Both the position numbers and the translations under genes were made by a program. From positions 543,631-607,630 of the forward strand of contig CAVURN010000003.1 of the NCBI GenBank assembly GCA_963743915.1: a stretch of DNA of 64,000 bases. The letters are read 5' to 3'. Positions within the stretch are counted from its first letter, which is position 1; every line of letters starts with the position of its first letter. Source of the DNA: an uncultured Actinomycetota bacterium. GTDB lineage: Bacteria; Actinomycetota; Actinomycetes; JAHEKZ01. This document shows, piece by piece, positions 7,121 to 61,308 of this stretch. Below the pieces are notes generated by a model. That model made no database searches, had not been told where the DNA came from, and saw only the letters and a program-made list of their open reading frames with translations.

Positions 7121-7633
7121 GTGCGCGTGCGAACCCCCCTCGGCCGGCTCCCGGCGTTCGTCGTCATCGCGGCCAACGCAGCGTTCTGGCCCGCGTGGAC
7201 GGCCGCCGTCGGCTGGGCGGCGCAGCGGACCCCGGACCGGCGCTTCTCGTCCGACGACGCGGTCACCCGGGAACGTTCCTTCGAACGCGGCGGCCGCTGG
7301 TACCGCGAGGAGTGGCAGATCGAGCGGTGGAAAGGCGCCCTTCCCGAAGCCGGACGTGCGTTCGGCGGGTTCGAGAAGCGTTCGGTGGCGCAGGGCGACG
7401 TCGAGGTGATGGAACAGTTCCTGATCGAGACGCGGCGGGCCGAGCACGCGCACTGGGGCATGGTCGCCGGAGTGGCGGTGACGCTGCTGTGGAACCCGTG
7501 GTGGGCGACACCGGCCAACGTCGCAGTCGCGGTGGGCAGCAACGTCCCCTGCATCGCCGTGCAGCGCTACAACCGGGCGCGCCTGCGTCGCGCGATCGTC
7601 GCGGTGCGACGCCGCGCTACATCTGCTCGATGA
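7121..7633 (+). CDS. CrtO-like (glycosyl-4,4'-diaponeurosporenoate acyltransferase family) protein
   Basis: ETRRAEHAHW and NVPCIAVQRYNRARL motifs typical of the family. Confidence 0.75.
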   Translation: MRVRTPLGRLPAFVVIAANAAFWPAWTAAVGWAAQRTPDRRFSSDDAVTRERSFERGGRWYREEWQIERWKGALPEAGRAFGGFEKRSVAQGDVEVMEQFLIETRRAEHAHWGMVAGVAVTLLWNPWWATPANVAVAVGSNVPCIAVQRYNRARLRRAIVAVRRRATSAR

Positions 7634-8381
7634 GGTCCCGCGGGCCCACCACGATCACCGGATCGAGGTCAGGGTCGAGCCACTGCAGCACCTGACGCAT
7701 CCGGGCGCGCGAGATGGAGATGCACCCGGCGGTGGCGTCCGTGCCGTTCACGTGCAGGAAGATGCCACCGCCTGCTCGCGTGTCCGCGGTCTCCAGAGCG
7801 ATGCGCTGGCCGTTCCGCCACCGCAGCGCGGCGGGCAGGTTGTAGTCGAGCACCACCGCGAAGCGGTACTGCTTGCGGTAGGACGCCAGACGCTCGGCCC
7901 AGTCGGTGCGCCACTGGGCGTGCCGGGGTCGCCACGGCTGCAGGACGTTGTACGTCTTGGGGTCCGACGGGTCGTACGGCCACCAGTCGTTGGCGTCGAC
8001 CCGGCGGTACGGCAGCTCGACGCCGCCAGGCTTGGCCAGGCCGAACCCGCGCAGCAGGGCGAACGTCCCGGCCGGGGTGGTCCCGGTGCTCTGCAGGCGG
8101 TCCTCCGCGGCTCGCATTCCGTTCCAGCCCACCCGCGCCGGCACCGGTGCCATCACCTGCACCCAGGCACCGCCCGTCGTCCGGCGCCAGGTCTGCAGCC
8201 TGGCGTAGCTGGTCTGCCAGCCGCTGGAGGTGACCACCACGACCTGGCGGGCGTCACCGACGTTCGCGAGGCGTGCGGGCAGTGGCGCACCGGCAGCTCC
8301 TGCCGGCGCCGCTCCACCCAGCGCTCCGGCCACCACGGCGGCCGCTGCCAGGGTCGCGAGGGCGGCGACGAGTCGTCTCAT
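7617..8381 (-). CDS. Secreted L,D-transpeptidase (YkuD)-like protein
   Basis: Signal peptide; TTPAGTF and GGGIFLHVNGTDATAGCIS catalytic His/Cys motif. Confidence 0.85.
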   Translation of the reverse strand: MRRLVAALATLAAAAVVAGALGGAAPAGAAGAPLPARLANVGDARQVVVVTSSGWQTSYARLQTWRRTTGGAWVQVMAPVPARVGWNGMRAAEDRLQSTGTTPAGTFALLRGFGLAKPGGVELPYRRVDANDWWPYDPSDPKTYNVLQPWRPRHAQWRTDWAERLASYRKQYRFAVVLDYNLPAALRWRNGQRIALETADTRAGGGIFLHVNGTDATAGCISISRARMRQVLQWLDPDLDPVIVVGPRDLIEQM

Positions 8382-8471
8382 CCCCCCAGTATCGGTCGGT
8401 GGGGCGGGGCGGCTTGAACCCCGGGACCGGCCTGGTGACCACGGAGCGCGCCGGCGTGCGAACCTGGGCCC

Positions 8472-8933
8472 GTGCGCGGACGCCTCTTCGTGACGGTCCA
8501 GACGATGCTCCTGGTGGTCCTGGGGCTGTCGCCCTTCTGGGCCCGGGAGCCTGACGTACCGCTGGTCGTCACGCTGGCGGGGGCACTCGTCCTGCTGGCC
8601 GGGCTGGTGGTGTCCGCGCTCGCTCTGCGGAACCTCGGCGACGCCCTGACCCCGCTGCCGGAGCCACGCCCTGACGCCGCGTTGGTGGTCACGGGCCTCT
8701 ACCGGTGGGTCCGGCACCCGATCTACACGGGGGTCCTCACCACGGCGGTCGGCTGGACGCTGATCCTTCCGTCGTGGTGGACGGCTGGTGTCACCGTCGC
8801 TCTCGTCCTCCTCTTCACGTTGAAGAGCCGCTACGAGGAGTCGCTGCTGCGCGAGCGGTACGTCGGGTACGCCGACTACGCCAGGCGCACGCCGCGCTTC
8901 GTCCCGCGTCCGCGTCGTCCGCTATCGCTGTAG
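8472..8933 (+). CDS. Isoprenylcysteine carboxyl methyltransferase (ICMT/PEMT) family membrane protein
   Basis: LVVTGLYRWVRHPIY, EESLL..Y..Y and TPRFVP motifs. Confidence 0.88.
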   Translation: MRGRLFVTVQTMLLVVLGLSPFWAREPDVPLVVTLAGALVLLAGLVVSALALRNLGDALTPLPEPRPDAALVVTGLYRWVRHPIYTGVLTTAVGWTLILPSWWTAGVTVALVLLFTLKSRYEESLLRERYVGYADYARRTPRFVPRPRRPLSL

Positions 8934-10439
8934 GCGGCCTGTAGCCGCGGCGAAGGCCAGCACCGATCGTGGGGCGAACGGTGCGCGCCACATGCCGCCA
9001 TGCATGGCGCCGGCGGCGAGCAGGTCCATGCAGGAGTCGACCGGGACGGCGGGGTTGGCGAGCGATGCGTCGTTGCGCAGGTCGTGGACCAGCAGGGCGG
9101 CCATCACCTGTCGGCTGGCTGCCGGGGAGAACACGTGCAATCCGAACCGGTGTGCGCCCCCGTACGCCGAGGCGATCAACGGATTGCTGACGACCGAGCG
9201 TGAGCGGGTGGCCGGAGCGACGTTGATCGAGACACGGACGCCTTGCGCCCGGGCCCGCGCGGCACGCCACCGCTGCACCCGTTTGGCCAGGGCGTAGTTG
9301 GGCCCCTGCTGCGTGATGAGTGCATCCATCAGCCCGTACCGCTGTCCGGTCGGCAGCGTCTCGATGCCGTCGTACGCGGGTCGGAAGATGCGGCGTCCGC
9401 CGAGCTCGCGGGCGATCGACACCATGACGGTCGACTCCGCGTAGCGCCGGCGCGACAGCTCGACCGCGTCGCTCGGGACGGCGTACACGTCGGTGGGGGT
9501 CGCCAGGTAGGCGAGGCTGATGTCGGACCGCCGGTCGAGCAGGTGGGCGATCACCGCGTCCACCGCCGCCGTGGTGCGCACGTGCGTCGAGCCCGAGGCG
9601 TAGACGTAGTCACCGATGACGAGGGGGCCGGGCAGGTGTGCGAGCCACTCGGCGATCTCAGGCGCCTCGTTGATCACGTCGGTGCCGGCCTTGGCGGCGA
9701 CGGCGGCGTCCCTGGCGTCCGGGTCGATGCCCCCGCGCACGGGCACGGTCAGGCGTCCGGGCGATCGCCGGGCCTGCTCGATGAGGGGACGCCACAGGTG
9801 CGGTCCCGGCAGGTCGACCGCCACGACATGGGCCCCCCACCGCAGCAGCGGCGCGAGCGGCCCCATCTCAGACGCGGCACCGAGCACGACGACCGTGGTG
9901 TCGGACAGGTCGAGCCACTCCGGGTGCGCTGCGACGGTGCGGAGAGCCTCGATCGCCGACGGCTCGCCGACCGCCTCGGCCTCCCAGCGGTCGAGCAGGC
10001 GCAGCGCGTCGTCGCCGGCGACGCGCGTCTCGTCGTCGACCAGGGTGAACGTGGTGTCGGGCAGGCCCTGGCCACGTACCCGGTGACCGGACAGGTAGTG
10101 GGTGCGCGGCACCTCGAGGGCTTCGGTGATCGAGCCCTCCGCGCCCTGGCGTCGGAAACGCATCTCGGAGTGGAAGGCGGTCAGGCCATCGGTGGCGATG
10201 AGACCAACGTGCCCGCCGGCCGACAACCGGGTCATCTCGCGGAAGTGCTTCGGGTAGTGGCGGTACCAGTGGGACTCGTCGCGGGCCGCGTCGCTCGCGG
10301 CGGTGTCGACCCGACCCGTCGAGGCAGCCACCACACGCCGACCGACCGGCTGGGTGGCCCGCTCGCTGCCGGTGAGCGGGAACACCACACCCGCATGGGA
10401 CGCGGGGGTGTTCGCCGGCTCCCGGCTGCGACGCCTCAC
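8922..10439 (-). CDS. Conserved hypothetical protein with Rossmann-like motif
   Basis: 505-aa ORF with VVVLGAASEMGP, LAYLATPTD and QQGPNYALAKR; function not assignable. Confidence 0.7.
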   Translation of the reverse strand: MRRRSREPANTPASHAGVVFPLTGSERATQPVGRRVVAASTGRVDTAASDAARDESHWYRHYPKHFREMTRLSAGGHVGLIATDGLTAFHSEMRFRRQGAEGSITEALEVPRTHYLSGHRVRGQGLPDTTFTLVDDETRVAGDDALRLLDRWEAEAVGEPSAIEALRTVAAHPEWLDLSDTTVVVLGAASEMGPLAPLLRWGAHVVAVDLPGPHLWRPLIEQARRSPGRLTVPVRGGIDPDARDAAVAAKAGTDVINEAPEIAEWLAHLPGPLVIGDYVYASGSTHVRTTAAVDAVIAHLLDRRSDISLAYLATPTDVYAVPSDAVELSRRRYAESTVMVSIARELGGRRIFRPAYDGIETLPTGQRYGLMDALITQQGPNYALAKRVQRWRAARARAQGVRVSINVAPATRSRSVVSNPLIASAYGGAHRFGLHVFSPAASRQVMAALLVHDLRNDASLANPAVPVDSCMDLLAAGAMHGGMWRAPFAPRSVLAFAAATGRLQR

Positions 10440-28842: not shown

Positions 28843-29835
28843 TCAGGCGGGGGACCGGAACTGGACGTCGGAGTCCCAGTGGGTGAACCCGAGCCGCTCG
28901 TAGGCGGTGATGGCCCGCCGGTTGTCCGCGTCCACGTACAGCATCACCTCGAGCAGGCCCCTGCTGCGCAGGTGGTGCAGGCCGGTGAGGATCAGGGCAC
29001 GCCCGAGCCCGGTCCCCTGCTCGGAGGGGTGGACGCCGACCACGTACACCTCGCCGATCAGCTCGTGTCCGTGGTGGTGGGGCTCGGTGCCGTCGGCGTG
29101 GCTGTGCCCGTGCTCGTGGTCGCCCCCGTGGACCTTCGTCCAGTGGTAGCCCACGAGGCTCCCGTCGCGCTCGGCCAGGAAGAACCCGGCGCGGTCGAAC
29201 CAGGGTTCGGCCATCCGCCGGTGCAGGTCCTCGCGCGTCAGCGACCCCTGCTCCGGGTGGTCGGCGAACACCAGCGCGTTGAGGGCGACCCACGCGTCGT
29301 CGTCAGCGCCCGGGACGAAGGTGCGCAGGCTGACGCCGGGGGGCACCTTCGGTGTGGGCAGCGGCGCCGAGAGCGAGCGGCGCAGCTGCAGCAGCTCCCG
29401 CACCTTGCGGAATCCCAGGCTCTTCGCGAGACCGACCGCCGAAGGGTTCTCGCCGTGGGCCCACAGGCGCAGCCGTCCGTCCGGTGTCTCGGTGCGGGCG
29501 GTGGCGACGAGTCGCCGCCCCACACCGCGTCGCCGCCACGAGGGGTCGACGACGACCTCGGCGCTCGACCCCGCCACCGTGTCCGTGACATCGAGGTGCG
29601 CGTAGCCGGCCAGCTGCGGATGATCGCCGCGCGCCGGACCGTGGACGAGGATGTGCCGGATGCCGACGTCGCCGCCGTGGCGCAGGTGCAGCGTCGAGTG
29701 CTCCGACAGCGGCCGGACGCCGTCGGCCTCGGTGGCCCGCTCGGCGAGCAGGGCGACGGCTGCGGTCTCGTCTGCGTCGAGCCGGGTGAGCACCTCGACG
29801 AAGAAGCCGTCAGGCTCGCTGCTCTCGGCGCTCAT
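28843..29835 (-). CDS. mshD: Mycothiol synthase (tandem GNAT)
   Basis: [22 protein letters not shown] and LYVDADN motifs; synteny. Confidence 0.93.
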
Positions 29836-29863
29836 GCGTGCAGCCTAGGCCGCGGCGTCCGCC

Positions 29864-30539
29864 TCAGGACGACGCGCTGACGAAGCGGTAGCCGACGTTG
29901 CGGACGGTGCCGATCAGCTGCTCGTACTCGCCGCCGAGCTTGGCGCGCAGGCGTCGCACGTGGACGTCGACCGTGCGCGTGCCGCCGAAGTAGTCGTAGC
30001 CCCAGACCTCCTGCAGCAGCTGTGCCCCGCGTGAACACCCGTCCCGGGTGCTGGGCCAGGAACTTCAGCAGCTCGAACTCCTTGTAGGTCAGGTCGAGCA
30101 CGTTGCCGCGGAGCTTGGCGGTGTACGTCGCCTCGTCGATCACGAGGTCGCCGTTGCTGATCAGCGGCTGGTCACCGTCGTTCGTGGCTGCGAGCCGCTC
30201 AGTGGCGAGGCGCAGCCGCGCGTCCACCTCGGCCGGGCCCGCGGTGGCGAGCACCACGTCGTCGACGCCCCACTCGGCGGTGACGGCGGTGAGTCCGCCC
30301 TCGGTGGTGACCAGGATCAGCGGCACGGTGACGCCGGTGGTGCGGATCAGCCGGCAGAGCGAGCGGACCCGTGGCAGGTCGCCGCGTCCGTCCACGAGCA
30401 GGGCGTCGGCCGGTCCGGAGTCGAGCAGCGCGGCGGCCTCGGCCGGCAGCACGCGCACCTGGTGGGGAAGCAGCTCGAGGGCAGGCAGCACCGACTCGGC
30501 GGTGGGACCACCGTGCGTCAGCAGCAGCAGCCGTGCCAC
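29864..30539 (-). CDS. glnR: OmpR-family orphan response regulator, GlnR-like (frameshift near 30025)
   Basis: [46 protein letters not shown]; adjacent to mshD as in other actinomycetes. Confidence 0.82.
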
Positions 30540-39747: not shown

Positions 39748-39803
39748 GCACACCTTTGGGGTGACTCGTCCGGGTCATGACCCGGACGAACTTCCCCGAA
39801 GAC
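39748..39803. repeat. REP-like palindrome family 2, copy 2
   Basis: GCACACCTTTGGGG..TCGTCCGGGTCATGACCCGGACGA..CCCCGAAG; matches reverse complement of 19115-19170. Confidence 0.75.
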
Positions 39804-39839
39804 GTGCAGTTGCCGTGCGTGCTCGGTGGGGATGGGAGG

Positions 39840-41627
39840 ATGGGGCGTGTGACGCGCCGATCCCGCCTGCTGCTCGGCGCGCTCGTGGTGGTGGTGCTGC
39901 TCGGGGTGGCCGCCCTCTGGATCGTCGTCCGGGCCCAGCAGGCCGCTGACGCGCTGAGCAGCGCGCGCACCGGAGTCACGCAGATCCGCGAGAACCTCTC
40001 CGCCGGACGCCCCGACCCGGTGCAGCAGCAGCTGGCGGTCGTGCAGGCCGACACCGCCCGCGCGGTGGACGTGACCAGCGACCCGGTGTTCCGCATCGCC
40101 GCGCAGATCCCGGTCCTCGGCGCCTCGCCCGCGGCGGTCCGCGACGTCGCCGAGGCGGCGGACGCGCTGGCGCAGGACGCCCTGCCCGACCTGCTCGAGG
40201 CGGGCACCGCGCTCAACCCGGACGGCATCCGCCTCGAGGGCGACCGGCTCAACCTCGCCGCGTTCGAGGCGGCGACGCCGCCGCTGCAGGACGCCGTCGC
40301 GTCGCTGAGCGCGATCTCCGCCGACGTCGCCGCCATCGACACCGCCGGGACGCCGGGCCGGGTGAAGGACGCCGTGAACGGCCTGCAGGACGACCTCGAC
40401 GACGCGCTCTCCGAAGCCGAGTCGGCGCGCCGGGGCGCGGAGCTGATCCCACCGATGCTGGGCGGCGACGAGACGCGTCGCTACTTCCTCGCGCTGCAGT
40501 CCAACAACGAGGCGCGCGGGACCGGCGGGTTCTTCGGGTCGTTCGGCGTCATCACCGCCGACGACGGCAAGGTCGACGTGCGCCAGCTCGCCCCGCGCTC
40601 CGTGCTCTACGACCAGACGTACGACCAGGTGCCGCTGGACTTCGGGCCCGACTACGCCGCGCTCTACGGCGACGACCCGGCCAGCTGGGCGAACGCGAAC
40701 CTCTCGCCGCACTACCCGTACGCCGCGCAGCTCTGGCTGAAGATGTGGCGCGACCGCACCGGCGAGCAGCTCGACGGCGTGGTCACGACCGACCCGGTGG
40801 CGCTGTCGTACCTGCTCGAGGCGACCGGGCCGGTCACCATGCCGGACGGCCGGGTGATCTCGGCGGACAACGTCGTCTCCTTCACCGAGAACGAGATCTA
40901 CTTCCTCATCCCCGACGACGACGCCGCGCGCGACCAGTACCTGCAGCAGGTGGCCGAGGCGTCCCTGAAGGCGGTGCTCTCCGGCGAGGCCGACCCGCGC
41001 GCCCTGCTGGACGCCCTCGGCCGCGCGGCCGGCGAGCGGCGGCTGCTGGTGTACTCCGATCGGGTGAACGAGCAGGCCGAGCTCGCGGCGTCCGCGATCG
41101 GTGGGGCGCTCCCGGGCGACGCCGGGCCGTTCGCCGGGCTCGCCACCATCAACGGCGGCGGCAACAAGCTCGACTACTACCTCGACCAGGGGCTCAGCTA
41201 CCGGGTGGTGGGCTGCCTGCCGGACGGCGGGCGGCGGGTCGAGATCACCGCGACGTACAAGAACACGGCTCCCGGCGACGGCTCCCTGCCCCTGTACATC
41301 GACGCGCGGGGGGACCGGCCGCTGACGCCGGAGGGGCTGCCGCCGAGCGGCAACGGGGACCACTTCTTCTTCACCCAGGTCTACGCGACCGCCGAGTCTT
41401 CGCTGGTCAGCGCGGTGCGGGACGGCAAGCCGATCGCCATGGAGCAGGGCCGCGAGCAGGGGCACCGGGTCTTCCGGGCGGGCCTGGAGGTCAAGGCGGG
41501 GGACTCCACCCGCGTGGTGCTGACCGTGGACGAGCCGCCCACGTCCGGCGAGCTGCGGACCTTCGTGACGCCCCTGGTCAAGCCGGTCTCGGTGGATGCC
41601 GACATCACGGAGTGCGGCGGCGACTAG
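39840..41627 (+). CDS. DUF4012 domain membrane-anchored protein
   Basis: N-terminal TM; RRYFLALQSNNEARGTGG, NLSPHYP, DGVVTTDP, NKLDYYL. Confidence 0.88.
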   Translation: MGRVTRRSRLLLGALVVVVLLGVAALWIVVRAQQAADALSSARTGVTQIRENLSAGRPDPVQQQLAVVQADTARAVDVTSDPVFRIAAQIPVLGASPAAVRDVAEAADALAQDALPDLLEAGTALNPDGIRLEGDRLNLAAFEAATPPLQDAVASLSAISADVAAIDTAGTPGRVKDAVNGLQDDLDDALSEAESARRGAELIPPMLGGDETRRYFLALQSNNEARGTGGFFGSFGVITADDGKVDVRQLAPRSVLYDQTYDQVPLDFGPDYAALYGDDPASWANANLSPHYPYAAQLWLKMWRDRTGEQLDGVVTTDPVALSYLLEATGPVTMPDGRVISADNVVSFTENEIYFLIPDDDAARDQYLQQVAEASLKAVLSGEADPRALLDALGRAAGERRLLVYSDRVNEQAELAASAIGGALPGDAGPFAGLATINGGGNKLDYYLDQGLSYRVVGCLPDGGRRVEITATYKNTAPGDGSLPLYIDARGDRPLTPEGLPPSGNGDHFFFTQVYATAESSLVSAVRDGKPIAMEQGREQGHRVFRAGLEVKAGDSTRVVLTVDEPPTSGELRTFVTPLVKPVSVDADITECGGD

Positions 41628-42600: not shown

Positions 42601-43572
42601 TCAGCGCTCGGACCAGGTGTCCCCACCGTCGCTCGAGACCAGCATCACCGGCTCGCGGTTTCGCAGCCCGAGCAGCACGGCGTCCTGCTTCGACGTGAAC
42701 GCCACGTCGAGCACCCGGTCCACCTCGACCGACGCCGACGGGCAGTCCAGACGCCGGAACGAGGCGCCCTCGTTGACGCTCTCGCGGAGCTGACCTTCGC
42801 TGCAGTCCCCGCCCGGTCCGAAGAGCACGAAGGCGGTGCGCGTGCCCGCAACGTCGAGGTCGAGCACCGTCTCGGCACCGTCGAGGCCGAGCTCGGGACG
42901 GTCGTCCGTCAGCCGCTCGAAGATCTCGCCGGCGTTGGTGGTGCGGGCCAGCAGCCGTGACCCCGTGACGGCGTTCTGGCACAGCAGCAGCCCTTTGGTG
43001 TCGTCCCAGAACGCCAGGTGCTGCGGCTCCCCGTCAGCGGCGTCGCACGGCTGGCCCGGCTTCACGCCGCGCACCGGCACCAGCCGCAAGTCGGCGTCGA
43101 CGCGGTAGACCGAGATCTGCGGCTCCCCGATGGTCTGCTCGATGCCCCAGACGCGGTCGCCCTCGTACCAGGCGTCCAGCAGCACCGGGTTGTCCTCGCG
43201 GTACACCCACGTCTTGCCGCCGTCGTCGGTCAGCGCCACCCCGCGCGAGCACGCACTCGTGGTGCCGGTCGCGACGCCATCGGACGCGTTCGCGAACGAC
43301 AGCGCGTACACGTTGGCCAGCGGGATCGAGGACGGACGCCACTCGCCGCCGGCCTCGCTGCGCTCGAGCGGCAGGGCGTCCGAGTCGGCGTTGCAGTCCG
43401 TGGGGCCGACCCACCGCCACACGGTGTCGCCGGACGCCGCCACGACACCGATCTCGAGCGCAGGCGGCGTCTCCGGAGCCTCGACAGGGCGCAGCGCCAG
43501 CAGCACGAGGAGCACTGTGAGGATGGCGAGCACCACGATGACCACGCCGGTGACCAGGTGGCGTCGCCTCAC
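42601..43572 (-). CDS. Membrane-anchored BNR/Asp-box beta-propeller protein
   Basis: N-terminal TM; TDDGGKTW, TTNAG..F and SSDGGDTW repeats. Confidence 0.72.
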   Translation of the reverse strand: MRRRHLVTGVVIVVLAILTVLLVLLALRPVEAPETPPALEIGVVAASGDTVWRWVGPTDCNADSDALPLERSEAGGEWRPSSIPLANVYALSFANASDGVATGTTSACSRGVALTDDGGKTWVYREDNPVLLDAWYEGDRVWGIEQTIGEPQISVYRVDADLRLVPVRGVKPGQPCDAADGEPQHLAFWDDTKGLLLCQNAVTGSRLLARTTNAGEIFERLTDDRPELGLDGAETVLDLDVAGTRTAFVLFGPGGDCSEGQLRESVNEGASFRRLDCPSASVEVDRVLDVAFTSKQDAVLLGLRNREPVMLVSSDGGDTWSER

Positions 43573-43895
43573 GAGTGCTCCCCGTTCACGCGCTCGACCC
43601 ACTCGCCCTCGAGCAGCTGCCCGTACAGCTCGACGATGTCCGGGACGATCGCGTCCGTCTTGACCCCGTACTCCGGCGCGATGCGTTCGGCGACCTCGCC
43701 CGCGTCGACACCGCCTTCCCCCGCATCGACGATCTCCCGCCACACCCTCGTCGCGGTGTCGGACAGCCCGATCCGGCGTCCGGAGGGCAGGTGAAGCAGC
43801 ACCGCCCGCGGCGGGTCAGCCGCCTCGTCGAGCACGTGGGCGACCCAGTCCGGACGCCGCACGCGCCCCGACGCGTCACCTGTCACCTCAGCCAC
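43569..43895 (-). CDS. PqqD/RRE family protein
   Basis: LSDTATRVW...EVAERIAPEYGV.....DIVELYGQLLEGEWV pattern. Confidence 0.78.
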   Translation of the reverse strand: MAEVTGDASGRVRRPDWVAHVLDEAADPPRAVLLHLPSGRRIGLSDTATRVWREIVDAGEGGVDAGEVAERIAPEYGVKTDAIVPDIVELYGQLLEGEWVERVNGEHS

Positions 43896-44058
43896 ACCAC
43901 CCCGAGCTCGTCACATCAGTCACACCCGTCACACCCGAAAACGCTCATCATGCGTCATCATGGGGGACCGGGTCCCCGCACGGCGCGCCGCGTCGTACGC
44001 TTCCTCGACGTGCGGTCGACCCGGCTGACGACGCTCCGCAATCGAAAGGTCACGCACC

Positions 44059-46044
44059 GTGGACTTGAGGGACTACCTCGACATCCTGCGGGCGCGGTGG
44101 CGCCTGATCACGGCCACCACGCTCCTCGGGATCATGGCGGCAGCCCTCGCCTCGATGATGGCCACCCCGATGTACACCGCCACCGCGACCACGTTCGTGT
44201 CGGTCAACGGTGGCACCGCCAGTGACGTCAACAGCGCCTACACCGGCTCGCTCTTCGCCCAGCAGCGGGTGAAGTCGTACGTCGACGTGGTGCGGTCGGA
44301 CGACGTGATGACCGCGGTGATCGACGAGCTCGGCCTGGCCAAGAGCCCCAACGCTCTCGCCGGCCAGATCGACGTGAACAACCCTCTGGACACGGTGACC
44401 CTGGAGATCTCGGCCACCGACCCGAACCCCGCGCTGGCCCAGTCGATCGCGAACGCGACGGCCTCCCAGCTCGAGCAGGCTGCGGCCGAGCTCGAGCCAC
44501 CGGGGGCGGATGGAAACCCGCTCGTCAAGGTCACGACGACGCAGCCGGCCGCACAGCCCTCGTCGCCGTCGTCGCCCCGGACGATGATCAACCTCGCGCT
44601 CGGGCTTCCTGGTCGGTCTCGCCATCGGGGTCGGTGCGGCGGTGCTGCTCGAGACGCTGGACACCCGGATCAAGTCGATCGAGTCGCTCGCGAAGTACTT
44701 CGACCAGCCGCTGCTGGGTGTGATCGGCTACGAGCCCGAGGCCGAGAAGAAGCCGCTGCTGACCGACTACCCCGGCCAGAGCAAACGCTCCGAGTCCTTC
44801 CGTCAGGTGCGCACCAACCTGCAGTTCGTCGACATCGACCACCGCCCCCGCTCCATCGTCGTCACCAGCGCGGTGCCGCGCGAAGGCAAGTCGACGACGG
44901 CGATCAACCTCGCGATGACGATCGCGCAGACGGGGCAGCCGGTGTTCCTCATCGAGGGGGACCTGCGGCGCCCGAAGATCTCCGAGTACCTCGGCATCGA
45001 GGGCAGCGCCGGCCTCACCGACGTGCTGGTCGGACGCGCCACCGTCGACGAGGTCATGCAGCCCTGGGGAAACACCGGCAACCTGTGGGTGCTGGCCTCC
45101 GGAGCGTTGCCCCCCAACCCGTCCGAGCTGCTCGGCAGCCAGGCGATGGCCGACCTCATCCGCCACCTCGAGAAGCGCGCGACGCTGATCATCGACGCGC
45201 CGCCGCTGCTGCCGGTCACCGACGCCGCGGTGCTCACCCGTCTCGCCGGTGGCGCGATCATGATCATCGCCACGGGCAAGACGCGGCGCGAGCAGCTGCG
45301 CACCGCCACGAGCAACATCGAGTCGGTCGGCGGCAAGATCCTCGGTCTGGTCATGAACATGGCACCCGCGCGCGGACCCGACTCGCACCGCTACGGGTAC
45401 GGCTACCAGTACGACTACCCGAGCACGAACGAGCGCCAAGAAGCTCGACGACCACGCTCCGGTGATCCCGGCCGGGCTCGGTGGCCTGCCCGGGGTCAAC
45501 GGCTCGCCGACACCGACGGTGCCGGTCGGACGGTCGGGGCGTCCCCGAAGCCGCACGAGCCGAACTCGGTGGCCGAGGTGATCGAGGGACACATGGGCTC
45601 GCCGCGTCCCGCGTCCAAGGCGTCGGTGCAGGCGTCCGCCGCGCTGACGGTGACGGCGCTCGGGCCGCTTCGACGCCGGCGCCCGCGGCGAAGACCCCAA
45701 CCGCGACATCGGGCCCCCCGCTGCAGAGCGTCGTGCCCGCGGAGGAGAAGGTCATCGGCGGCTCGGCCGGCGTGCCGTTGGCGACCACGACGCCGGTGGT
45801 GAGCAACCCGGTTCCCGAGCTGTTGCCGGCGGACACCGCGTCCGGTGCGCGCTTCGGCCTCGACGACGACGCCCCGTTGAACGGCGTGGACGAGGTGCCG
45901 GTGGACCGCACTGCGGCCGAGCCGGTCGCGACCTGGACGCCGCCGTCCCCGCGGGCCGCGCTCGACCCGCTCACCGCGCCGTACGAAGAGGTCCAGGTGG
46001 CCGACCTTCGGCGGCAGGCCCCCGAGGAGCCCGACGGGTCCTGA
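44059..46044 (+). CDS. Wzc-like polysaccharide co-polymerase/BY tyrosine kinase with long Pro/Ala-rich tail (frameshifts)
   Basis: LRDYLDILRARW, SPR..NL (Wzz); ESFRQVRTN, EGKST, DLRRP, PPNPSELL, IDAPP; YGYGYQYDY Tyr cluster. Confidence 0.88.
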
Positions 46045-46074
46045 CGCGGCAAGCGATCGCGTGCGACGCGGCGA

Positions 46075-46774
46075 CTAGACCGCCAGGCAGCCCAAGACGG
46101 TGCAGCGACGCGTCGGCGAGCACACCGCCGTCGTCGTGCAGGCCGCGAAAGCGCCGCCGCAGGTCCCGCCAAGACCGCAGTTGCCGTGGGTGCAGCCGCC
46201 GTTGCCTGAGCAGGTCGACCCTGGGCCGCCGCAGGTCTTGGGCCCGTCGGTCCGCCCCGAGCACTGGCCGGCGGTGCAGTCGGCGGTGGTCGCACACGGC
46301 AGTGCTGATGCCACCCGCTCGGCACGTTCCGCCCGTGCAGATTCCCGTGATGCAGTCCACCGGTGCGTCGCAGGGATCTCCCGTGACCCCCTGGACGCAG
46401 ACGCCGCCGGAGCAGATGCCCTGAGCGCAGTCGGAGGTCGCCAGGCAGGTGTCCCCGAGCTGACCCGGCTGACACGTCCCGCCACTGCATCGGCTGGTCA
46501 CGACACTCGGCATTGACCAGACAGGTGCTGCGCCGACTCCGCAGAGCGGACACCCGGCTGCCCGTGCCAGCAGAGTCCCCTGCGAGCACGGCCCGGACGC
46601 GGCGGCGGCCGGAGCGGTGGCGGACTGGAGCGCTGGCACCGACCACACGGCCGCACCGACGACTCCAGAGCGGCGAAGGAAGTCGCGGCGGCTCATGCCG
46701 CGGCGAGGTGTCGGCGCATCTAAGGCCTGCCGACGGGCGACTCTGCGCGCGAGGGTGTCGAGCCAGGAAGTCAT
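46075..46774 (-). CDS. Cys-rich repeat protein 1 with Tat-like leader (frameshifted)
   Basis: MTSWLDTLARR..SRRDFLRRSGVVGAAVWSVPALQSATAPAAAAS followed by about 6 C-x5-C-x4-C-x4-C-type repeats. Confidence 0.75.
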
Positions 46775-46867
46775 ACCCGTCCGACTCCGGTCGTGATGCT
46801 GCCGGGTACTACTTCACCGTTGCCGATGCGCTTTCGCGGGAACCGACACGCCAGCCCGCAGCTCGCG

Positions 46868-47000
46868 TCAGGTGACGCTGATGCCGTCCACCGACGACCG
46901 CGGTGCCGAGCGACGCGGCGTGACGCGTCCCCAGCACCCGCACCTCGAGCGTGTGCCGCTGGTCGTGACGGCCTGAGACGGTGACCGTCGCTGCCGATAC
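46868..47000 (-). pseudogene. Orphan 3' fragment of a beta-sandwich (carbohydrate-binding-like) domain gene
   Basis: Reads HTLEVRVLGTRHAASLGTAV(V)..DGISVT-stop with no upstream gene body. Confidence 0.4.
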
Positions 47001-47076
47001 GGCGAGGGCCGGCGCTCAGGATCCGCGGGCACCCGCGGTGCCGACGGGGATCCGCCAGGTGGGTGGTGCGCCGTGC

Positions 47077-47990
47077 TCAGGGCAGGACGACGAGGGCACG
47101 GGCTGCCAGCACCCGCACCAGGTCCTCGACGTCGAGCAGGATCTCGTTGGAGTCTGCGCCGTAGTGCGCGGCCAGGTCGCCGGCGAGCTGGGTCAGGGTC
47201 ATCTCGCCGTCGAGGGAGAGCCAGACGGCGGTTCCCGGCCCGTCGAGGTGGTGCAGGTGCTGACCGTCGAAGAGCACGGCCTCGCCCTCGAGCACGATCC
47301 AGTCGACGCCCTCCGCGCGCCTGGGGCCGGCGGTACCCGATGGGGCAGCTTCGGGGGTCGTGCTGATCTGCTCGGGGTGCTTCGCCCCGGTCTGGGGCAG
47401 CAGGGTGTCGGTGATCACCTTTGCGGCGTCGAAGGCGTGGCCGTAGCTGACCTGGTAGGCGGGCACGCTCAGCACGAGGCGGGCAAGCGCAGCCAGGGGG
47501 CGGGGCTCGATGGCCCACATCGCGCTGGACTGCTCTCCCAGGACGAAAGCAGCGCGTGCAGGGGTGACCTCTTCGATGCCGACGTCGTTCCGCTCCTCGT
47601 CGACGTCCGGGAAGACGATCAGGGCGGGACGCAGAGGCGCGTCGGGCAGCGAAGGTCCGCCGAGCCGTTCCGGGGGCAGCTGCCAGTTGCCCGAGCCCTC
47701 GGAGACCTCGTCCTGCGGCGGGCTGCAGGTGGGCGAGGAGCTCGTGGGAGCCAGGCTTGACGGTGAGCGGCTTGAGGAAGGGCTCGATGGCGAGGGTGTC
47801 CGGGTCGAGGCAGACCGTCTCGTCGGTGACGTAGGCGAGCCCCTGGGTGACGAGGGCGGCGGTCAGCGTCGTCTTGCCAGCACCGGACGCGCCATGCACG
47901 ACGATCGTGCGCCCGTCAGACGTCGCGGCACCACCGGCATGAAGGAGCAGCTGCCCACGCCGGGCATCGATGAAGGCAAGCGTGGCGCGT
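47077..47990 (-). CDS. HPr-kinase-like P-loop protein fused to a C-terminal PqqD domain (N-terminus missing, frameshifts)
   Basis: LLLHAG, GASGAGKTT, YVTDE; C-terminus EAVLFDG..LHHLD..GTAVWLSLDG..LAAHYG...DVEDLV..L. Confidence 0.78.
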
Positions 47991-48027
47991 CGGCGACCTC
48001 GGCGTCCGTGGTGCAACGGCAGAGCGT

Positions 48028-48500
48028 TCAAGCGCGACTGTCGCCAGGGTGCTTCTTGCATTGGCCGCCAAGACCGCGTTTCCGCTGCGCTGGCACACTT
48101 GCGTGTTGTCCGGCAGGTGGCACCTGCTCCGCCACAGTACCGCATTGCTTGGAGCAGTCAGCTGTTGTAGCACGCACACGCCGCCTCGCACAGGCGGCTC
48201 CCACGCCTCCGCAGATGCCCAGGTAGCAGACCGACGAAGTCCCCGCATGCACGCCAGTCGCCGACCCGGCGCACACCGATGCCGACGGCCCGGGTGACGC
48301 GCTCGCCGCCGGGGCCATGACCGTCTGCAGGACCGGGACGCTCCAGGCGACTCCACCGACGACGCCGGCCTTCTTCAGGAAGTCGCGCCGTGAGGAGGCG
48401 GGCGCAGGAGCCTGCCGGAGGCGGGCGAAACCGACTCCGGGGCAGCAGAAGGGGCGGCCTCAGCCGCCCGCTTGGCCCACCTGTCGAGCCATCCACCCAT
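48028..48500 (-). CDS. Cys-rich repeat protein 2 with Tat-like leader (frameshifted, 3' end damaged)
   Basis: MGGWLDRWAKR..SRRDFLKKAGVVGGVAWSVPVLQTVMAPAASAS followed by Cys-rich segments. Confidence 0.68.
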
Positions 48501-48618
48501 GCTGTAACCCCCGAGAGTCGAATCCGGCCCTCCCGAGAATAGGGGTTCGGGGGTGGGTATGGCGAGCCGCCCGACCGGAAAGACCCCGGTCGGGGCTCAG
48601 GCGGGCCAGATTGCCTGG

Positions 48619-49315
48619 TCAGGGGCCCGTGGGGCGGAACCCCTGACCAGGCATCCGGCCGTCTATGCGGACGCAGTAGCCGTTCCGGCAGCGACCGGAC
48701 ACGCACTTGTTGTTGTTCTGCACAGGCGGCGCCGGTTCCGCCGCAGGTGTGTGGTCTGGTTGGTGCCGCAGGTGGTGTTGTCCGTGCAGTCCGCGGTGGC
48801 CCGGCAGTAGCCACCGAGGGGGTTCTCGAAGCACTGCCCGCCGTTGCACTTGTCCGACAGGCACTGGCTGTTGGCCGTGCAGGTCGTCCCGGGCCACGAG
48901 GCGAGGCAGACGCCGCCGAGGCAGTTCCCGCTCTGGCACTGGCTGTCCGTGATGCAGGCGGTGCCGTTGCCGTAGGGGATCATGCAGATGCCGTTGAGGC
49001 ACACCAGCCCCGAGGCGCACTGGACGCCGGGTCCGCACGCGGTTCCCGGGGGGCACGCCACCGTGCACGGTGCACGCTGGCAGCCGCCGCAGGGGCGAGC
49101 GCCGACTGCAGCAGCGGGGTGGTCCACACGGCGGCACCGACGACGGCACCGCGGCGGAGCAGGGCACGACGAGAAATCCCCTGCGCACTCGGCGCAGGGG
49201 TGATCGCGTCGGGACGCCCGGACTCAGGCGTGGATTCGATCCCCGAGACAGCTGTGCGATGACGAACTCGGTGACCGGTCGACGCCTTGGCCAGGGCGTC
49301 GAGCCAGTGCCCCAC
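48619..49315 (-). CDS. Cys-rich repeat protein 3 with Tat-like leader (frameshifted)
   Basis: VGHWLDALAK..SRRALLRRGAVVGAAVWTTPLLQSALAPAAAAS; repeats CITDSQCQSGNCLGGVC and CTANSQCLSDKCNGGQC. Confidence 0.75.
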
Positions 49316-49400
49316 GGGGAGAACGTCGGCATTTCGGCGTCCGTGCTTGAGCCGGCCTCGTTCACCCATTCGGCCTAACGGCAGCTCCGGACGCCTCCGC

Positions 49401-49700
49401 CTACCAGTCACGCTCGTCGCGGGTCGCGGAGACGATGGCCACGTCGATCACGCGTTCGAGGGCCAGCCCCTCCTCGGCCAGAGCGTCCTGCAGGACGTCG
49501 AACGCGCCGGCGACGGCACCGTGGGGGCTCGTGGGAGGCGAGACGTAGTTCAGGGCGAGCCGGGTGATCCCCTGCGACCCCATGGCCAGGCCGACGCCGG
49601 ACCAGCGCCGCGGCTCTGACATGCCGAGCTGCCGCACCGTGTCGTCGTCGGGGGGCGGGTCGACGGCGAGCGTCAGCCGCACCTCCCACTCGTCTGTCAC
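49401..49700 (-). CDS. Hypothetical protein (99 aa)
   Basis: ORF with coding-like codon usage between the mauE fusion and Cys-rich gene 3. Confidence 0.55.
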   Translation of the reverse strand: MTDEWEVRLTLAVDPPPDDDTVRQLGMSEPRRWSGVGLAMGSQGITRLALNYVSPPTSPHGAVAGAFDVLQDALAEEGLALERVIDVAIVSATRDERDW

Positions 49701-49786
49701 GCGTCAATCCTGACCGGTGCGTCAGCACCCGGACCGGCTCCGACACGCGCTAGATCCACATGCGAGCCGAACGGACGAGTGGGCGG

Positions 49787-51215
49787 TCAGCCCAGCACGC
49801 GCACGGACGCCAGCAGGTTCAGCACCTCGGGACCGCCCACCGCCACGGTGGACGCCAGCTCGCCGTCTCGCAGGCGCACGGCGGTCGGTGTCCCCGGAGC
49901 CTGCAGCGCGCCGCCCACGCCGAACGTGGGGTCGAGCGCCACCGGCACGGTGAAACCGCGCTCGCGCACCGCGTCCGCCGAGCTGTCGCGCACCACCAGC
50001 ACCAGCGGCACGCTGCTCTGACGCCGCAGCACGTCGTCCTCGATCTGCTGGCAGAAGCCGCACCCGGTGTCCCAGAACAGCAGCACCGCGTCGTCGCCGG
50101 CAGCCTCGGCGATCGGCATCCGCTCGCCGTCCATCTCGACCATGACGTCCGGCGCCGGATCGCCCTCGCGCACCGGCGGCGGCCCGATCACCAGGTCTTG
50201 CGGCGCCCGGCCCGCGGCCGCCTGATAGAGGCGCCGCACGTCGTCGGAGCCATACGCAGGGGGTGTTGTGACCATGCCGTCGGCGCTCACGACCACCGCG
50301 CCGGGTGTGTACTCGATCCGGTAGTCGTCGACGGCGCGCGCCGTCGTGCGCGTGGACGGTCACCGCGCCGAACTTGCCCGCGATCGCGTCACGCTCGCCG
50401 CCACTCAGCACGACGACGTTCGGCCCGGTCTCGTCGGCCTGCCAGTCATTCAGGTCGTCGACCAGCTCGCCGCAGGCCTCGCACCAGGGCGCGACGAAGA
50501 CGAAGAGGTTGACGCGCTCGGGGTCGGTGACGTCGTCGAGCGCGACGTCGCGACCGTCCGCGTCGACGGCGACGAGGGCCGGCGCCTGCCACGGAGCGAA
50601 CTCGTGCGCGTGACCGTGGTGGACGCCTGCGCCTGCGGCCTCCAGCTCGTCGATGCGCAGCAGCGCGCGTCCGTGCCGCCGGAGCACCATCAGGAAGAGC
50701 ACGCCGAGCGCGACCACCGCTGCCCCGAGCAGCACGACCGCGATCGCGAGCCACGTCTCGGTACTCGTGAGCCCGTCGAAGGCGTCCGCCACGACCTGCC
50801 ACGGCCAGCCCTGAGAGCCGCCCCCGGCGAGCGTCACACCCGCCAGCACCATCAGCCCGACGTTGCGGGCGACCGACCACCACGACAGCGGCTTGGTGGA
50901 CATTGCCCCGAAGCAGTGGCAGTCGACGCGGTTGTCGCGCAGCAGGTTGGTGACGATGCCCAGGGTGAAGGCCGCCAGCAGCCCGAGGGCCAGCACCGCG
51001 CCTGCCACGACGGCCGGGCCACTGGTCACCAGCAGCAGCGCCGACAGCAGCTCCAGCGGCGCCAGCGAGACCGCGACCAGCGGGGTCAGCGACGCCGGGA
51101 CGCCGAAGTCGCGGACCGCCTTGCGGGCACCGTCGGCGTCCCGCAGCTTGGCGACCGCCGAGACCACGAAGGTGGCGGCGAGCGCCACGCGGGCGATCAG
51201 GGCGACGAGCTCCAC
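49787..51215 (-). CDS. MauE/DoxX membrane domain fused to two thioredoxin-like (MauD/TlpA-type) domains (frameshift near 50340)
   Basis: SAVAKLRD, VDCHCFG..WSVARN (MauE); FVAPWCEAC; FWDTGCGFC..GTPTAV. Confidence 0.83.
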
Positions 51216-59270: not shown

Positions 59271-59904
59271 GTGAGCACCCACCCGACCCGCCCCCGTATC
59301 CAGGTCATCCTCGGCTCGACCCGCCAGAACCGGGCGGGTGAGCAGGTTGCCTCGTGGATCACCGAGCTGGCCGCAGTCGCGCGACGACATCGACGTCGAG
59401 CTGGTCGACCTGCGCGAGTTCCCGCTGCCGTTCTTCGACGCTCCGGTGTCCCCGAAGCGTGAGCTGTCCGACGACCCGCGGGTGCGCGCCTGGGCCGCCA
59501 AGGTGGCCGAGGCGGACGGCTTCATCTTCGTGACCCCGGAGTACAACTACGGCTACCCCGCCGTGCTGAAGAACGCGCTCGACTCGATCTACTACGAGTG
59601 GAACGACAAGCCGGTCGGTCTGGTCGGCTACGGCGCCGTGGGCGGGGGACTGCGCGCCGTGATGCAGCTGCGGCAGGTCGTGGTCGAGCTCGGGCTCGTC
59701 CAGGCGCACGCCCACGTCATCGTCCCGTGGGTCGGGCGGGCGTTCGACGACGACGGCAAGCCGCGCGACGAGGTCACCCGCCGCATGGCGTCCGGCATGC
59801 TCGACGAGGTCGCCGAGTGGGCGCTGCTGCTGCGCGCCAAGCGCGAGGACAGCAGCGGCTCGAACCCAGACCGCCTGCAGCTCGGCGCTGGGTCGTGCCG
59901 CTAG
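59271..59904 (+). CDS. NADPH-dependent FMN reductase (frameshift near 59375)
   Basis: ILGSTR, FVTPEYN..YPAVLKNALD. Confidence 0.9.
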
Positions 59905-61308
59905 TCCCACGTGAACCCGGGTGGACGCGGCCGGCACTCTTGGCGCGCCAGCTGACGGTACTTCTTCACCTGGTCGCGGTAGTGAGGGTTGCCCGCCCTG
60001 TTGTGGAGCTCCTCGGGATCGGTCGCGTAGTCATACAGCTCCCGGCCGCGGTGGTCGTCGTACTCGACGTAGAGGTAGCGAGCAGTGCGGATGCCGCAAT
60101 AGGCGGGGTGGATCCCTACATCGGTCGTGTTCTCGGTCTGCTCGATGACGGTGTGCCGTGGGCGCTTGGCCGACAGCAGTGAGATCCCTTCGACATTGGG
60201 CAGGGTGGCACCGGTGACGTCGAGAATGGTGGCAGTGACGTCGACGTTCGTGACGATCCGCCGTGGGTGCGATGGCGGAATGACGCCGGTGTACCGGATG
60301 CCCATCGGGACGCGCACCGAACGGTCGTAGGGCAAGTCCTTGCCGGTGAGCCGGTGTGAGCCATTCATGAGCCCGTTGTCGGAGAGGAAGACGAACAGAG
60401 TCGGTTCTCCAGCAGCGGTGCGCACCAGACGTCCCACGGCCTCGTCGATCGCGAGAAGCGTCTCCCGCTGTCGGGTCAGTTTCAGCTGCTGCTGCTCGCG
60501 GTCCAGCTTCGGCCGTCGTATCCACTTCGGCTTGTCGGAGACGTCTGCCTCGTTGAAGGCTGCCACGTCCGTGACGTCCGCGAGCGGCAACGTGCCTTCA
60601 TGGCGCGGCGCCGGGATCCGGGGCCAGTGGGAGCCGAAGGGCGTGAACCAGACGAAGGCGGGACGCGATGACTGGGCGAGGAAATCCACCGCCAGGTCAG
60701 CGAGGACGTCGGTGGAGTAGTCCGACTCGTTGTCCCCGTAGTAGACGGGTTCGCCCGTTCCCTCGAGCTGGTAGTCGAAGTAGCGGGGAAGTCGTGAACG
60801 ACCGGAAGACGTCCCACCCCGGGGGGACGGTGCCGCTCCAGGCGTTGAGGTACTTGCCGAAGAGGCCGGTGCGGTAGCCACGAGCGTCGAGGGCCGTTGC
60901 CAGGGTGTGGTCCTCGTGCACCTGGAAGGCCGGCCAAGCACCGTGATTCTCGGGGTCGTTGGTCCAGACGCCGGTGGTGTGGGAGTGCTGCCCGGTGAGC
61001 AGGGACGCCCGCGACGGGCAGCAGAGAGGGGTCGGGATGATGCCGTTCCTGATCGCTGCGCCTCTGCGCATGATCAGCTTACGGACGTTGGGCATGACAT
61101 CGAGCGTGCCCACGGTCTGGTCGTCGGTGAGGATGACCACGACGTTGGGTCGTCCCGGCGTCGGGGCCGCCGCACGTTGGATCGCTGGTGGCGTTGCCGC
61201 GGCCTCGGCCGGCTGGATCGGAGTGGCGCCCACGGCGCCCACAGCTCCGAGGCCGAGCGTCAGGATGAGTGCCGGTCCAAGGACGCGTCGTGTGATGACC
61301 CCCGTCAT
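59901..61308 (-). CDS. Secreted sulfatase (frameshift near 60790)
   Basis: RPNVVVILTDDQ, CCPSRASLLTG, GKYLN, SDNG. Confidence 0.9.

Follow-up and report, generated by a model that had tools for sequence, protein, structure and literature searches.

A window of 64,000 nucleotides from an uncultured actinobacterium (assembly GCA_963743915.1, contig CAVURN010000003.1, positions 543,631 to 607,630) carries, between 43.5 and 51.3 kb, a gene island that looks like an undescribed and apparently widespread actinobacterial system related to a pathway of peptide phosphorylation that appeared in print in 2026. Three of its genes, termed CysA, CysB and CysC, encode proteins that share one leader, in which the sequence expected of a twin-arginine translocation (Tat) signal overlaps the motif bound by recognition elements (RREs) of ribosomally synthesized peptides with post-translational modifications (RiPPs). 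A fourth gene encodes an HprK-like P-loop kinase domain fused to a PqqD-type RRE, which is predicted to bind that motif. In the reading judged moderately probable, the RRE would guide serine phosphorylation of the Tat-signal proteins before export, disulfides would form outside the cytoplasm, and the island would act in connection with a polysaccharide.

The source is an actinobacterial metagenome-assembled genome (MAG) of 2.9 Mb in five contigs, 90% complete; the GC content of the window is about 72%. The translations of 17 open reading frames (ORFs) from 42.6 to 52.6 kb were scanned against Pfam and NCBIfam. On the minus strand, the order of transcription is MauE-Trx-Trx, an ORF of 99 residues, CysC, CysB, HprK-like/PqqD and CysA. 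A Wzc gene on the plus strand converges on CysA and diverges from a stand-alone PqqD gene, which is followed by a BNR/Ycf48-like gene. The three co-oriented paralogs were located where a preliminary description of the window had placed them, with the common leader and Cys-rich repeats that it reported: CysA (46075–46774) has four-Cys repeats, CysB (48028–48500) is short, and CysC (48619–49315) has about 22 Cys in knot-like modules. The other predicted parts were also recovered on the minus strand, namely the fusion of MauE with two CxxC domains (49787–51215; PF07291, 95.2 bits, cut-off 27), the HprK-like/PqqD fusion (47077 to about 48061, start codon uncertain; PF05402, 40.9 bits, cut-off 23.4) and the stand-alone PqqD protein (43569–43895; PF05402, 34.2 bits), a second RRE candidate. 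As stated there, no lasso cyclase, radical SAM or YcaO family was matched among the locus ORFs. All the elements of that description are present, but it did not mention the Wzc gene in the middle of the span or the 99-residue ORF.

The leader of CysA, CysB and CysC has an N-terminal W-[LI]-D..A-[KR]-R motif; the first codons of the three genes lie at 46763–46774, 48489–48500 and 49304–49315, respectively. A Pro/Ala/Ser-rich linker follows, then S-R-R-x-[FL]-L-[KR]-[KR] and finally a highly conserved hydrophobic segment, W-[ST]-x-P-x-L-Q..A-P-A-A-x-A-S. In all three proteins the WxxPx[L/V] motif sits in the hydrophobic part of the twin-arginine leader. It reads W-S-V-P-A-L-Q in CysA (46625–46645), W-S-V-P-V-L in CysB (48328–48345) and W-T-T-P-L-L in CysC (49109–49126), where it is the predicted RRE recognition sequence, as judged from the modelled interface on an orthologous leader. 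Over 18 leaders from 10 loci the invariant positions are W4, D6, A9, the RR pair, W50, P53, A60 and A62. Counted from the Trp, the 16th residue is a Ser in each of the three leaders of the window, just past the Ala-x-Ala cleavage site. Among 139 representatives of the leader family, 81 have Ser or Thr at this +16 position and 131 have one within +14 to +18. CysA passes the Tat model TIGR01409 (17.2 bits, cut-off 16.7) and falls below PF10518 (17.4 bits, cut-off 22.7); TatC is encoded in the genome (220.6 bits). A hidden Markov model of the leader matched four ORF pieces in the 2.9-Mb genome, corresponding to three genes, all in the locus, and no others.

The N-terminal motif, in the form W-[LIF]-D..A-[KR]-R, is found ahead of the RR pair in about half of the leader family. 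It co-occurs with a free PqqD protein in 12 of the 13 inspected genomes or loci that have it, and the free PqqD gene adjoins Wzc in the inspected loci. The motif is present in L078, L079 and L032 (7636–7815); the last of these is the exception, no free PqqD having been found there.

An intact ortholog of the kinase-PqqD protein has 311 residues. TIGR04352 is the best curated model for its kinase domain, with 71.7 bits over profile positions 93–276 of 280; the window fragment scores 50.8 bits, and both are under the equivalog cut-off of 200. In the host order, the kinase is without the N-terminal domain found in relatives. All of 26 family members, with identities as low as 25%, have the Walker A G-K-T and a D-E pair, and a His is almost invariant among them. 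The earlier assignment as an HPr-kinase-like enzyme is thereby sustained, the P-loop and acidic catalytic pair being kept. The AlphaFold2 (AF2) model of the ortholog has a predicted local distance difference test (pLDDT) score of 92. With Foldseek, its N-terminal part superimposes onto the nucleotide domain of PEPCK (E 1.5e-7) and onto HprK/P (E ~1e-3, probability 0.98–0.99), and its C-terminal part, a winged helix, onto TbiB1-leader complexes (TM 0.78–0.83, root-mean-square deviation 1.8–2.0). At the sequence level, a profile of the PqqD part retrieved PqqD, TbiB1, TfuB1 and 9x8z_B (E 0.002) from the PDB, the last being LppB according to the available text of PMC13381572. The kinase profile retrieved no HprK/P at E ≤ 1 among PDB sequences, only generic P-loop proteins and PqqD/RRE chains. 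The genome encodes only two PqqD domains, both in the locus; the free one has no TIGR04353 match.

A complex was modelled from the alignment of orthologous kinase-PqqD proteins and that of the 18 leaders, the leader being taken without its core. It scored 0.74, and the best of three controls 0.01; 116 of 157 solved complexes attain this mark, as against 2 of 215 mismatched pairs. Three runs shared at least 79% of contacts, with a partner pLDDT of at least 50. In the predicted interface, the PqqD strand 250–260 and helices 279–305 face leader residues 48–62 (W..P..L-Q...A-P-A), the RR region of the leader (residues 35–43) touches kinase residues 156–166, and the N-terminal motif remains outside. 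What the model shows is that the leader resembles a ligand of the PqqD fold, which is a likeness and not binding. In crystal structures, the RREs of lasso peptides and of linear polyphosphorylated peptides (LPPs) bind [Y/W]xxPx[L/V/I/F/A], as reported in the available part of PMC13381572. Recognition of the leader by PqqD had been proposed in the preliminary description; it is retained as a prediction for the fused domain, but the predicted site is WxxPxL within the hydrophobic part of the Tat-like signal and not the N-terminal motif.

The distribution of five components was examined in 20 genomes of the host order by scans for kinase-PqqD, the leader (E ≤ 1e-15), MauE-Trx (E ≤ 1e-60), free PqqD and Wzc. 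The genomes are close kin, so that the counts are descriptive and do not amount to a statistical test. All five components are present in nine (G000, G003, G004, G006, G008, G010, G016, G017 and G019) and none in seven (G005, G007, G009, G011, G013, G014 and G018; completeness 73–94%). The four mixed cases are fragmented assemblies in which part of the genes are on contigs of 2.5–4.6 kb. The free PqqD gene is found in 11 genomes, always with other island genes, and Wzc in 12, the same ones as the island. As it follows the presence pattern of the island across the order, Wzc is part of the co-inherited unit. The co-occurrence of leader genes and partners anticipated earlier was thus found for all the genes then listed, but the membership of Wzc had not been foreseen. 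On a second contig of G017 there are further sets of PqqD, Wzc and leader protein, only one of which has MauE-Trx in the fetched stretch. A sister genus has a polysaccharide cluster with another HprK-like gene and PqqD (L073/L074, G016:C9:6000–35120), together with glycosyltransferases, a sugar transferase, an asparagine synthase and a ligase-like membrane protein. It also contains at least six paralogs with a leader of the RR...W-A-A-P-A-V type and Cys-poor cores.

Among 1.84 billion, the leader profile matched 1282 cluster representatives with E ≤ 0.001; at the stricter E ≤ 1e-10 there are 57. Of the 150 representatives listed, 143 were examined and 139 of these have RR...WxxPx[LIVFAM], with cores ranging from Cys-rich knots to Cys-poor proteins. 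Only the generic Tat signal among curated NCBIfam models fits the family (30 representatives scanned). In 301 sampled genomes of the class, a leader match was found in 36 and a kinase-family match in 65 (a count that includes G275); the kinase family is present in 32 of the 36 leader-positive genomes and in 33 of the 265 others. Outside the host order, 20 of 28 genomes have a leader match at most 10 kb from one to kinase/PqqD, which holds for 31 of the 52 leader matches. Twenty loci were picked from those 52 for their best E-values and longer contigs. They contain HprK-like (14), PqqD (10), MauE/Trx (4), Wzc (4) and PF14907 (3) genes; the kinase matches have the hallmark motifs, with an N-terminal PqqD domain in some. 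The full set of PqqD, Wzc, kinase/PqqD, Cys-rich leader protein and MauE-Trx, with PF14907, is repeated in locus L078 from another family. The conserved core across Actinomycetes is the pair formed by the leader protein and HprK-like/PqqD. Some of the protein cores are not rich in Cys, and MauE-Trx, present in 4 of the 20 sampled outside loci, is accessory. A dedicated pathway had been deduced in the preliminary description, and the co-inherited unit and the predicted PqqD-leader binding agree with it, but its centre is this pair and not the disulfide machinery.

A set of 49 loci was also collected by similarity to the kinase. The PqqD domain is found in 44 of them, the PF14907 nucleotidyltransferase in 30, MauE in 10 and a leader protein in 10 (nine close loci and L032). 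The co-variation of Wzc and the PF14907 genes of relatives tie the system to polysaccharide loci. In G289, the family leader is borne by a Pro/Thr-rich protein with an LPxTG-like sortase signal at its end, adjoining HprK-like/PqqD (L096:9952–10524), which indicates that the cargo can be a cell-wall-anchored protein. In Janibacter massiliensis, a single ORF of 882 residues (L066:9278–11926) contains both an HprK-like/PqqD region and, at residues 628–853, a PPK2 polyphosphate kinase domain (TIGR03707, 376 bits). This fusion is suggestive, as related kinases build polyphosphate chains on serine.

The product of the MauE-Trx-Trx gene combines a MauE/DoxX-type membrane domain with two thioredoxin-like CxxC domains, seen as weak Thioredoxin_2 and AhpC-TSA matches beside PF07291; an intact ortholog has 478 residues (L015:4725–6161). 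It resembles the MauE/MauD pair of methylamine dehydrogenase maturation in that a MauE domain is followed by a thioredoxin-like CxxC domain weakly matching MauD. In contrast to that system, the score with the MauD equivalog (TIGR02661) is 22.8 bits for a cut-off of 188.6, and no mauA- or mauB-like gene was matched among the locus ORFs. The analogy with methylamine dehydrogenase drawn earlier is accordingly reduced to the MauE domain. The same MauE fusion adjoins HprK-like genes in the unrelated loci L032, L053, L078, L079, L081 and L086. In L053 (9680–11983), the gene directly after HprK-like/PqqD encodes a 451-residue protein with a MauE domain, and no leader gene turned up within 10 kb.

The Wzc gene (44059–46044, plus strand) encodes a polysaccharide co-polymerase/tyrosine autokinase (TIGR01007, 155.7 bits, cut-off 108.05; PF02706 (Wzz), 52.1 bits, cut-off 25.5) with a long C-terminal tail. 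The tail extends about 250 residues behind the Tyr cluster (45440–46044; L015:10491–11200), and its conserved end includes W-T-P-P.

A named relative of this system now exists in Bacillota, the LPP pathway (Popov et al., Nat Commun 2026, PMC13381572), which qualifies the earlier statement that the locus fits no named class. According to the available part of that paper, LPP clusters lie in capsule loci and encode, besides an HprK-like kinase and a discrete RRE, a peptidase of the SipW type, an ABC exporter and an NTP transferase. The precursors, of 35–200 residues, have a YxxPxVL... leader, the [Y/W]xxP motif of which is bound by the RRE as an added strand. LppK, guided by the RRE, adds up to four phosphates to Ser3 of the core; unphosphorylated precursor is cleaved poorly. 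LPPs are called restricted to Bacillota in the same text.

As far as the LPP pathway is documented there, both systems have an HprK-like kinase with a PqqD-type RRE and a conserved N-terminal leader with [Y/W]xxPx[V/L] ahead of variable cores (up to 200 residues in LPPs). In both, a Ser follows the cleavage site at a distance of a few residues. A signal-peptidase-type enzyme removes the leader of LPPs, and one would do so here. LPP clusters occur within capsule or exopolysaccharide loci, and the present locus would be linked to polysaccharide through Wzc. Unlike in LPPs, the leader looks like a complete twin-arginine signal, its RR pair being invariant, and the RRE is fused to the kinase, with a second PqqD protein free, whereas the LPP RRE is discrete. 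The cores are Cys-rich, reach about 350 residues and are accompanied by MauE-Trx-Trx and Wzc genes. The locus is from Actinomycetota, and its proposed chemistry is deduced from genes and models. Lacking three genes that define the class in the available description (those of the NTP transferase, the peptidase and the exporter), it does not qualify as an LPP cluster.

Phosphorylated and phosphoglycosylated lasso peptides offer a second comparison. In these systems, as given in the accessible text of PMC8498205, an HPr-kinase homologue phosphorylates a Ser of the precursor and a nucleotidyltransferase adds a hexose to the phosphate. Paeninodin (with the kinase PadeK) and pseudomycoidin (with a kinase and a nucleotidyltransferase) likewise derive from leader-bearing precursors, the leader being bound by the PqqD-like B1 protein. 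By contrast, the target Ser of lasso peptides is C-terminal, and the products here are proteins and not 20-residue peptides. The locus is also without the lasso cyclase and the B2 protease, the asparagine-synthetase-like and transglutaminase-like families of which are absent among its ORFs, and the lasso PqqD model gave weak matches only (18–19 bits, cut-off 70). NCBIfam's 'HPr-rel-A system' pairs HprK-related kinase A (TIGR04352) with a chaperone of the PqqD family. The locus shares with it the best curated model of its kinase domain and differs by scores far from the cut-off, the missing N-terminal domain and the free PqqD protein outside TIGR04353. Full-text searches of the literature on HprK-like kinases, PqqD/RRE, MauE and PF14907 brought up no Tat-leader version, and a term search in the available text of a 2025 RRE survey (PMC12710340) gave no occurrence of 'kinase'.

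Taken as an accessory island, the locus would make and export modified secreted proteins. Since WxxPx[L/V] lies in it, the hydrophobic part of the putative twin-arginine signal would double as a RiPP-type leader. WxxPxL would be clamped in the cytoplasm, as an added β-strand, by the PqqD domain of the kinase fusion, and the HprK-like kinase domain would phosphorylate, perhaps repeatedly, a Ser near the junction of leader and core. The protein would then be exported by the Tat system and its leader removed by the general signal peptidase. Outside the cell, the membrane-anchored MauE-Trx-Trx protein would oxidise or isomerise the cysteines. As Wzc and the second PqqD gene are inherited with the island genes, the products probably act with, or attach to, the Wzc-controlled polysaccharide.

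Several points weigh against this mechanism. The complex model leaves the leader away from the P-loop, and its score may be due in part to the fact that RRE-leader complexes are already solved; 5v1u, 6jx3 and 9x8z are among the PDB matches. The genome co-occurrence counts are uncorrected for shared ancestry. That heavily disulfide-bonded proteins would use Tat is not accounted for by this mechanism, and the sequence, inspected by eye for topology, does not place the Trx domains on one side of the membrane. No peptidase family (SipW-type) was found among the 17 locus ORFs, the remainder of the genome not having been searched. There is no ABC exporter (MsbA-like) gene in the locus, the weak ABC_tran matches being the kinase P-loop. 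PF14907 gave no match in the source genome (90% complete); among related loci, L030, L032, L078, L079 and L083 have it. Finally, in 39 of the 49 kinase-similarity loci no leader protein was found within 10 kb. Wzc is present in 29 of the 40 more distant of these loci, mostly from Nocardioides, where the typical arrangement is sugar transferase, Wzc, PF14907, VanZ and HprK-like/PqqD. The leader was searched for in three Nocardioides genomes and two MAGs, and only weak partial matches were obtained, in Nocardioides. As these loci have Wzc, PF14907 and VanZ in place of a leader protein, the kinase family can work without a neighbouring one, and its target could be the polysaccharide machinery.

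The main rival to phosphorylation of the leader proteins is built on this last point. It supposes two unrelated modules: HprK-like/PqqD would serve the Wzc machinery, acting for example on Wzc or a lipid-linked intermediate, and the Cys proteins would be ordinary secreted proteins that have a disulfide catalyst of their own in MauE-Trx and that the kinase does not modify. In 36 of the 49 loci (37 by phmmer), a Wzc gene on the opposite strand is found no more than about 3 kb from the kinase gene, and in Nocardioides-type loci it is PF14907 and sugar-transferase genes, with no leader protein nearby, that accompany the kinase. However, leader genes flank the kinase gene of the window on both sides with short gaps, and the only three leader genes of the genome are there. 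The outside leader matches that lie beside the kinase (31 of 52) include many loci in which no Wzc was seen. The invariant residues of the leader are moreover those of the known RRE-binding motif and of the predicted interface. Two independent modules are thus considered unlikely.

Another explanation keeps the contact between leader and kinase and dispenses with covalent modification. The kinase-PqqD protein would be a signal-peptide chaperone that holds the Tat signal, nucleotide binding serving as a switch, with a logic comparable to that of the Tat proofreading chaperones TorD or DmsD. The burial of the hydrophobic part of the signal and of the RR region in the complex model would suit such a role, as would the loss, in the host order, of the N-terminal domain that relatives have. 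The acidic pair and the His beside the P-loop nevertheless show the conservation expected of a functional phosphotransferase, and PadeK (PMC8498205) and LppK (PMC13381572), the closest enzymes that have been studied, are true kinases in the available accounts. A purely chaperoning function is held to be improbable.

The CysB ortholog is intact (L015:7495–7881, 128 residues), the Cys columns are conserved in the CysC ortholog alignment, and the mature part of CysC is modelled by AF2 as a confident chain of small disulfide modules (pLDDT ~90). Foldseek gave no match to the core fold in the PDB at E ≤ 0.001, the best being knottin-type peptides at E ≥ 1; a VIA structural search also returned weak knottin-type matches, with Z of 2.1–2.5 only. 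An assignment as EB module, DUF7107 or Dickkopf_N was rejected, the Pfam matches being at or below threshold. A classical small-peptide RiPP pathway, whose precursor repeats would be excised as many small knotted peptides with, for example, an antimicrobial or protease-inhibiting function, would account for arrays of Cys-knot-like units of about 25–30 residues and for the knottin-type character of the only structural matches. It is very unlikely, as neither a protease nor conserved cleavage sites between the repeats were seen, and AF2 packs the modules into one chain; other members of the family have non-repetitive cores or sortase-type anchors.

Several reading frames of the island are interrupted. 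Comparison with the orthologous locus L015, a short-read assembly in which all the genes are intact, places breaks at about 44605, 45438, 45540–45660, 46298, 47725, 49067–49103 and 50335. Three of these are in Wzc, one each in the kinase (about 47725) and MauE-Trx-Trx (about 50335) genes, and CysC has a further one near its 3' end. CysB is broken between the N-terminal and RR motifs, and the assembled CysA has several inserted single bases. Four public runs, one of which may be the source sample, gave contigs that have exactly one base fewer at each of 44602, 45427/8, 46301 and 50335, and that lack further bases within CysA at 46502, 46530, 46557 and 46575. Because of the intact ortholog locus and of these contigs without the extra base, the frameshifts are taken as mostly assembly errors. 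The breaks at about 47725 and 49080 are not among the indels listed (12 of 74). In other long-read relatives the same genes and their neighbours (PhoX, BNR) are broken at different places, and codon-position GC is coding-like across each break. A break count over the whole window, based on GC at third codon positions, did not separate breaks from gene borders. A decaying remnant, with real frameshifts and pseudogenes in the host, would explain at least eight breaks in about 7.6 kb and the two left by the listed indels, and is most improbable in view of the run contigs, the shifting positions in relatives, the coding-like GC and the truncated matches elsewhere in the window, which suggest the same type of error.

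These truncated matches are those of a GlnR-type regulator (29832–30539) and a sulfatase (59901–60941), the shortened domain matches of which are consistent with further single-base assembly errors. L032, from a long-read MAG, contains a near-identical repeat of the leader gene and kinase start (7561–8616 and 9010–9790), which comes with a copy of the last part of the upstream thioredoxin gene. This duplication probably arose in the assembly.

Three neighbouring genes complete the description. The 99-residue ORF between the MauE-Trx gene and CysC (49401–49700, minus strand) is conserved with 68–74% identity in five related loci and was not found in three others (L016, L018 and L019). It has no Pfam or NCBIfam family match, and the only lead, from the Atlas, is to a DUF6204 cluster (score 0.89). 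The BNR/Ycf48-like β-propeller gene (42601–43584, minus strand), directly downstream of the PqqD gene, gives weak BNR and PSII_BNR matches, and its synteny is kept in seven related loci. A DUF4012 gene lies upstream (39777–41627). Proteins of this family are often encoded near chain-length determinants; the gene is present in 15 of the 20 genomes of the order, including two without the island, and its pattern differs.

A broader version of the phosphorylation mechanism is offered tentatively, and with more doubt than belief. In this widespread pathway, the hydrophobic core of the Tat signal would be the RRE recognition sequence, and the (poly)phosphorylation of the future N-terminal Ser would be coupled to export, the kinase-RRE masking the signal until the protein is marked. 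In relatives, the phosphate would be glycosylated by the PF14907 enzyme, and phospho-Ser would dock the knotted proteins to the polysaccharide made under Wzc. If so, this would be a route of protein-polysaccharide matrix assembly not described so far. Should the main reading hold, RRE-guided modification would extend beyond small RiPP peptides with dedicated exporters to full-size secreted proteins, with a general export signal serving as leader, and genome-mining tools should then count more proteins as precursors. The many orphan cassettes of HprK-like, PqqD and nucleotidyltransferase genes in polysaccharide loci would then have a first class of substrates, and a testable link would join protein phosphorylation, Tat export and the assembly of the capsule or biofilm matrix.

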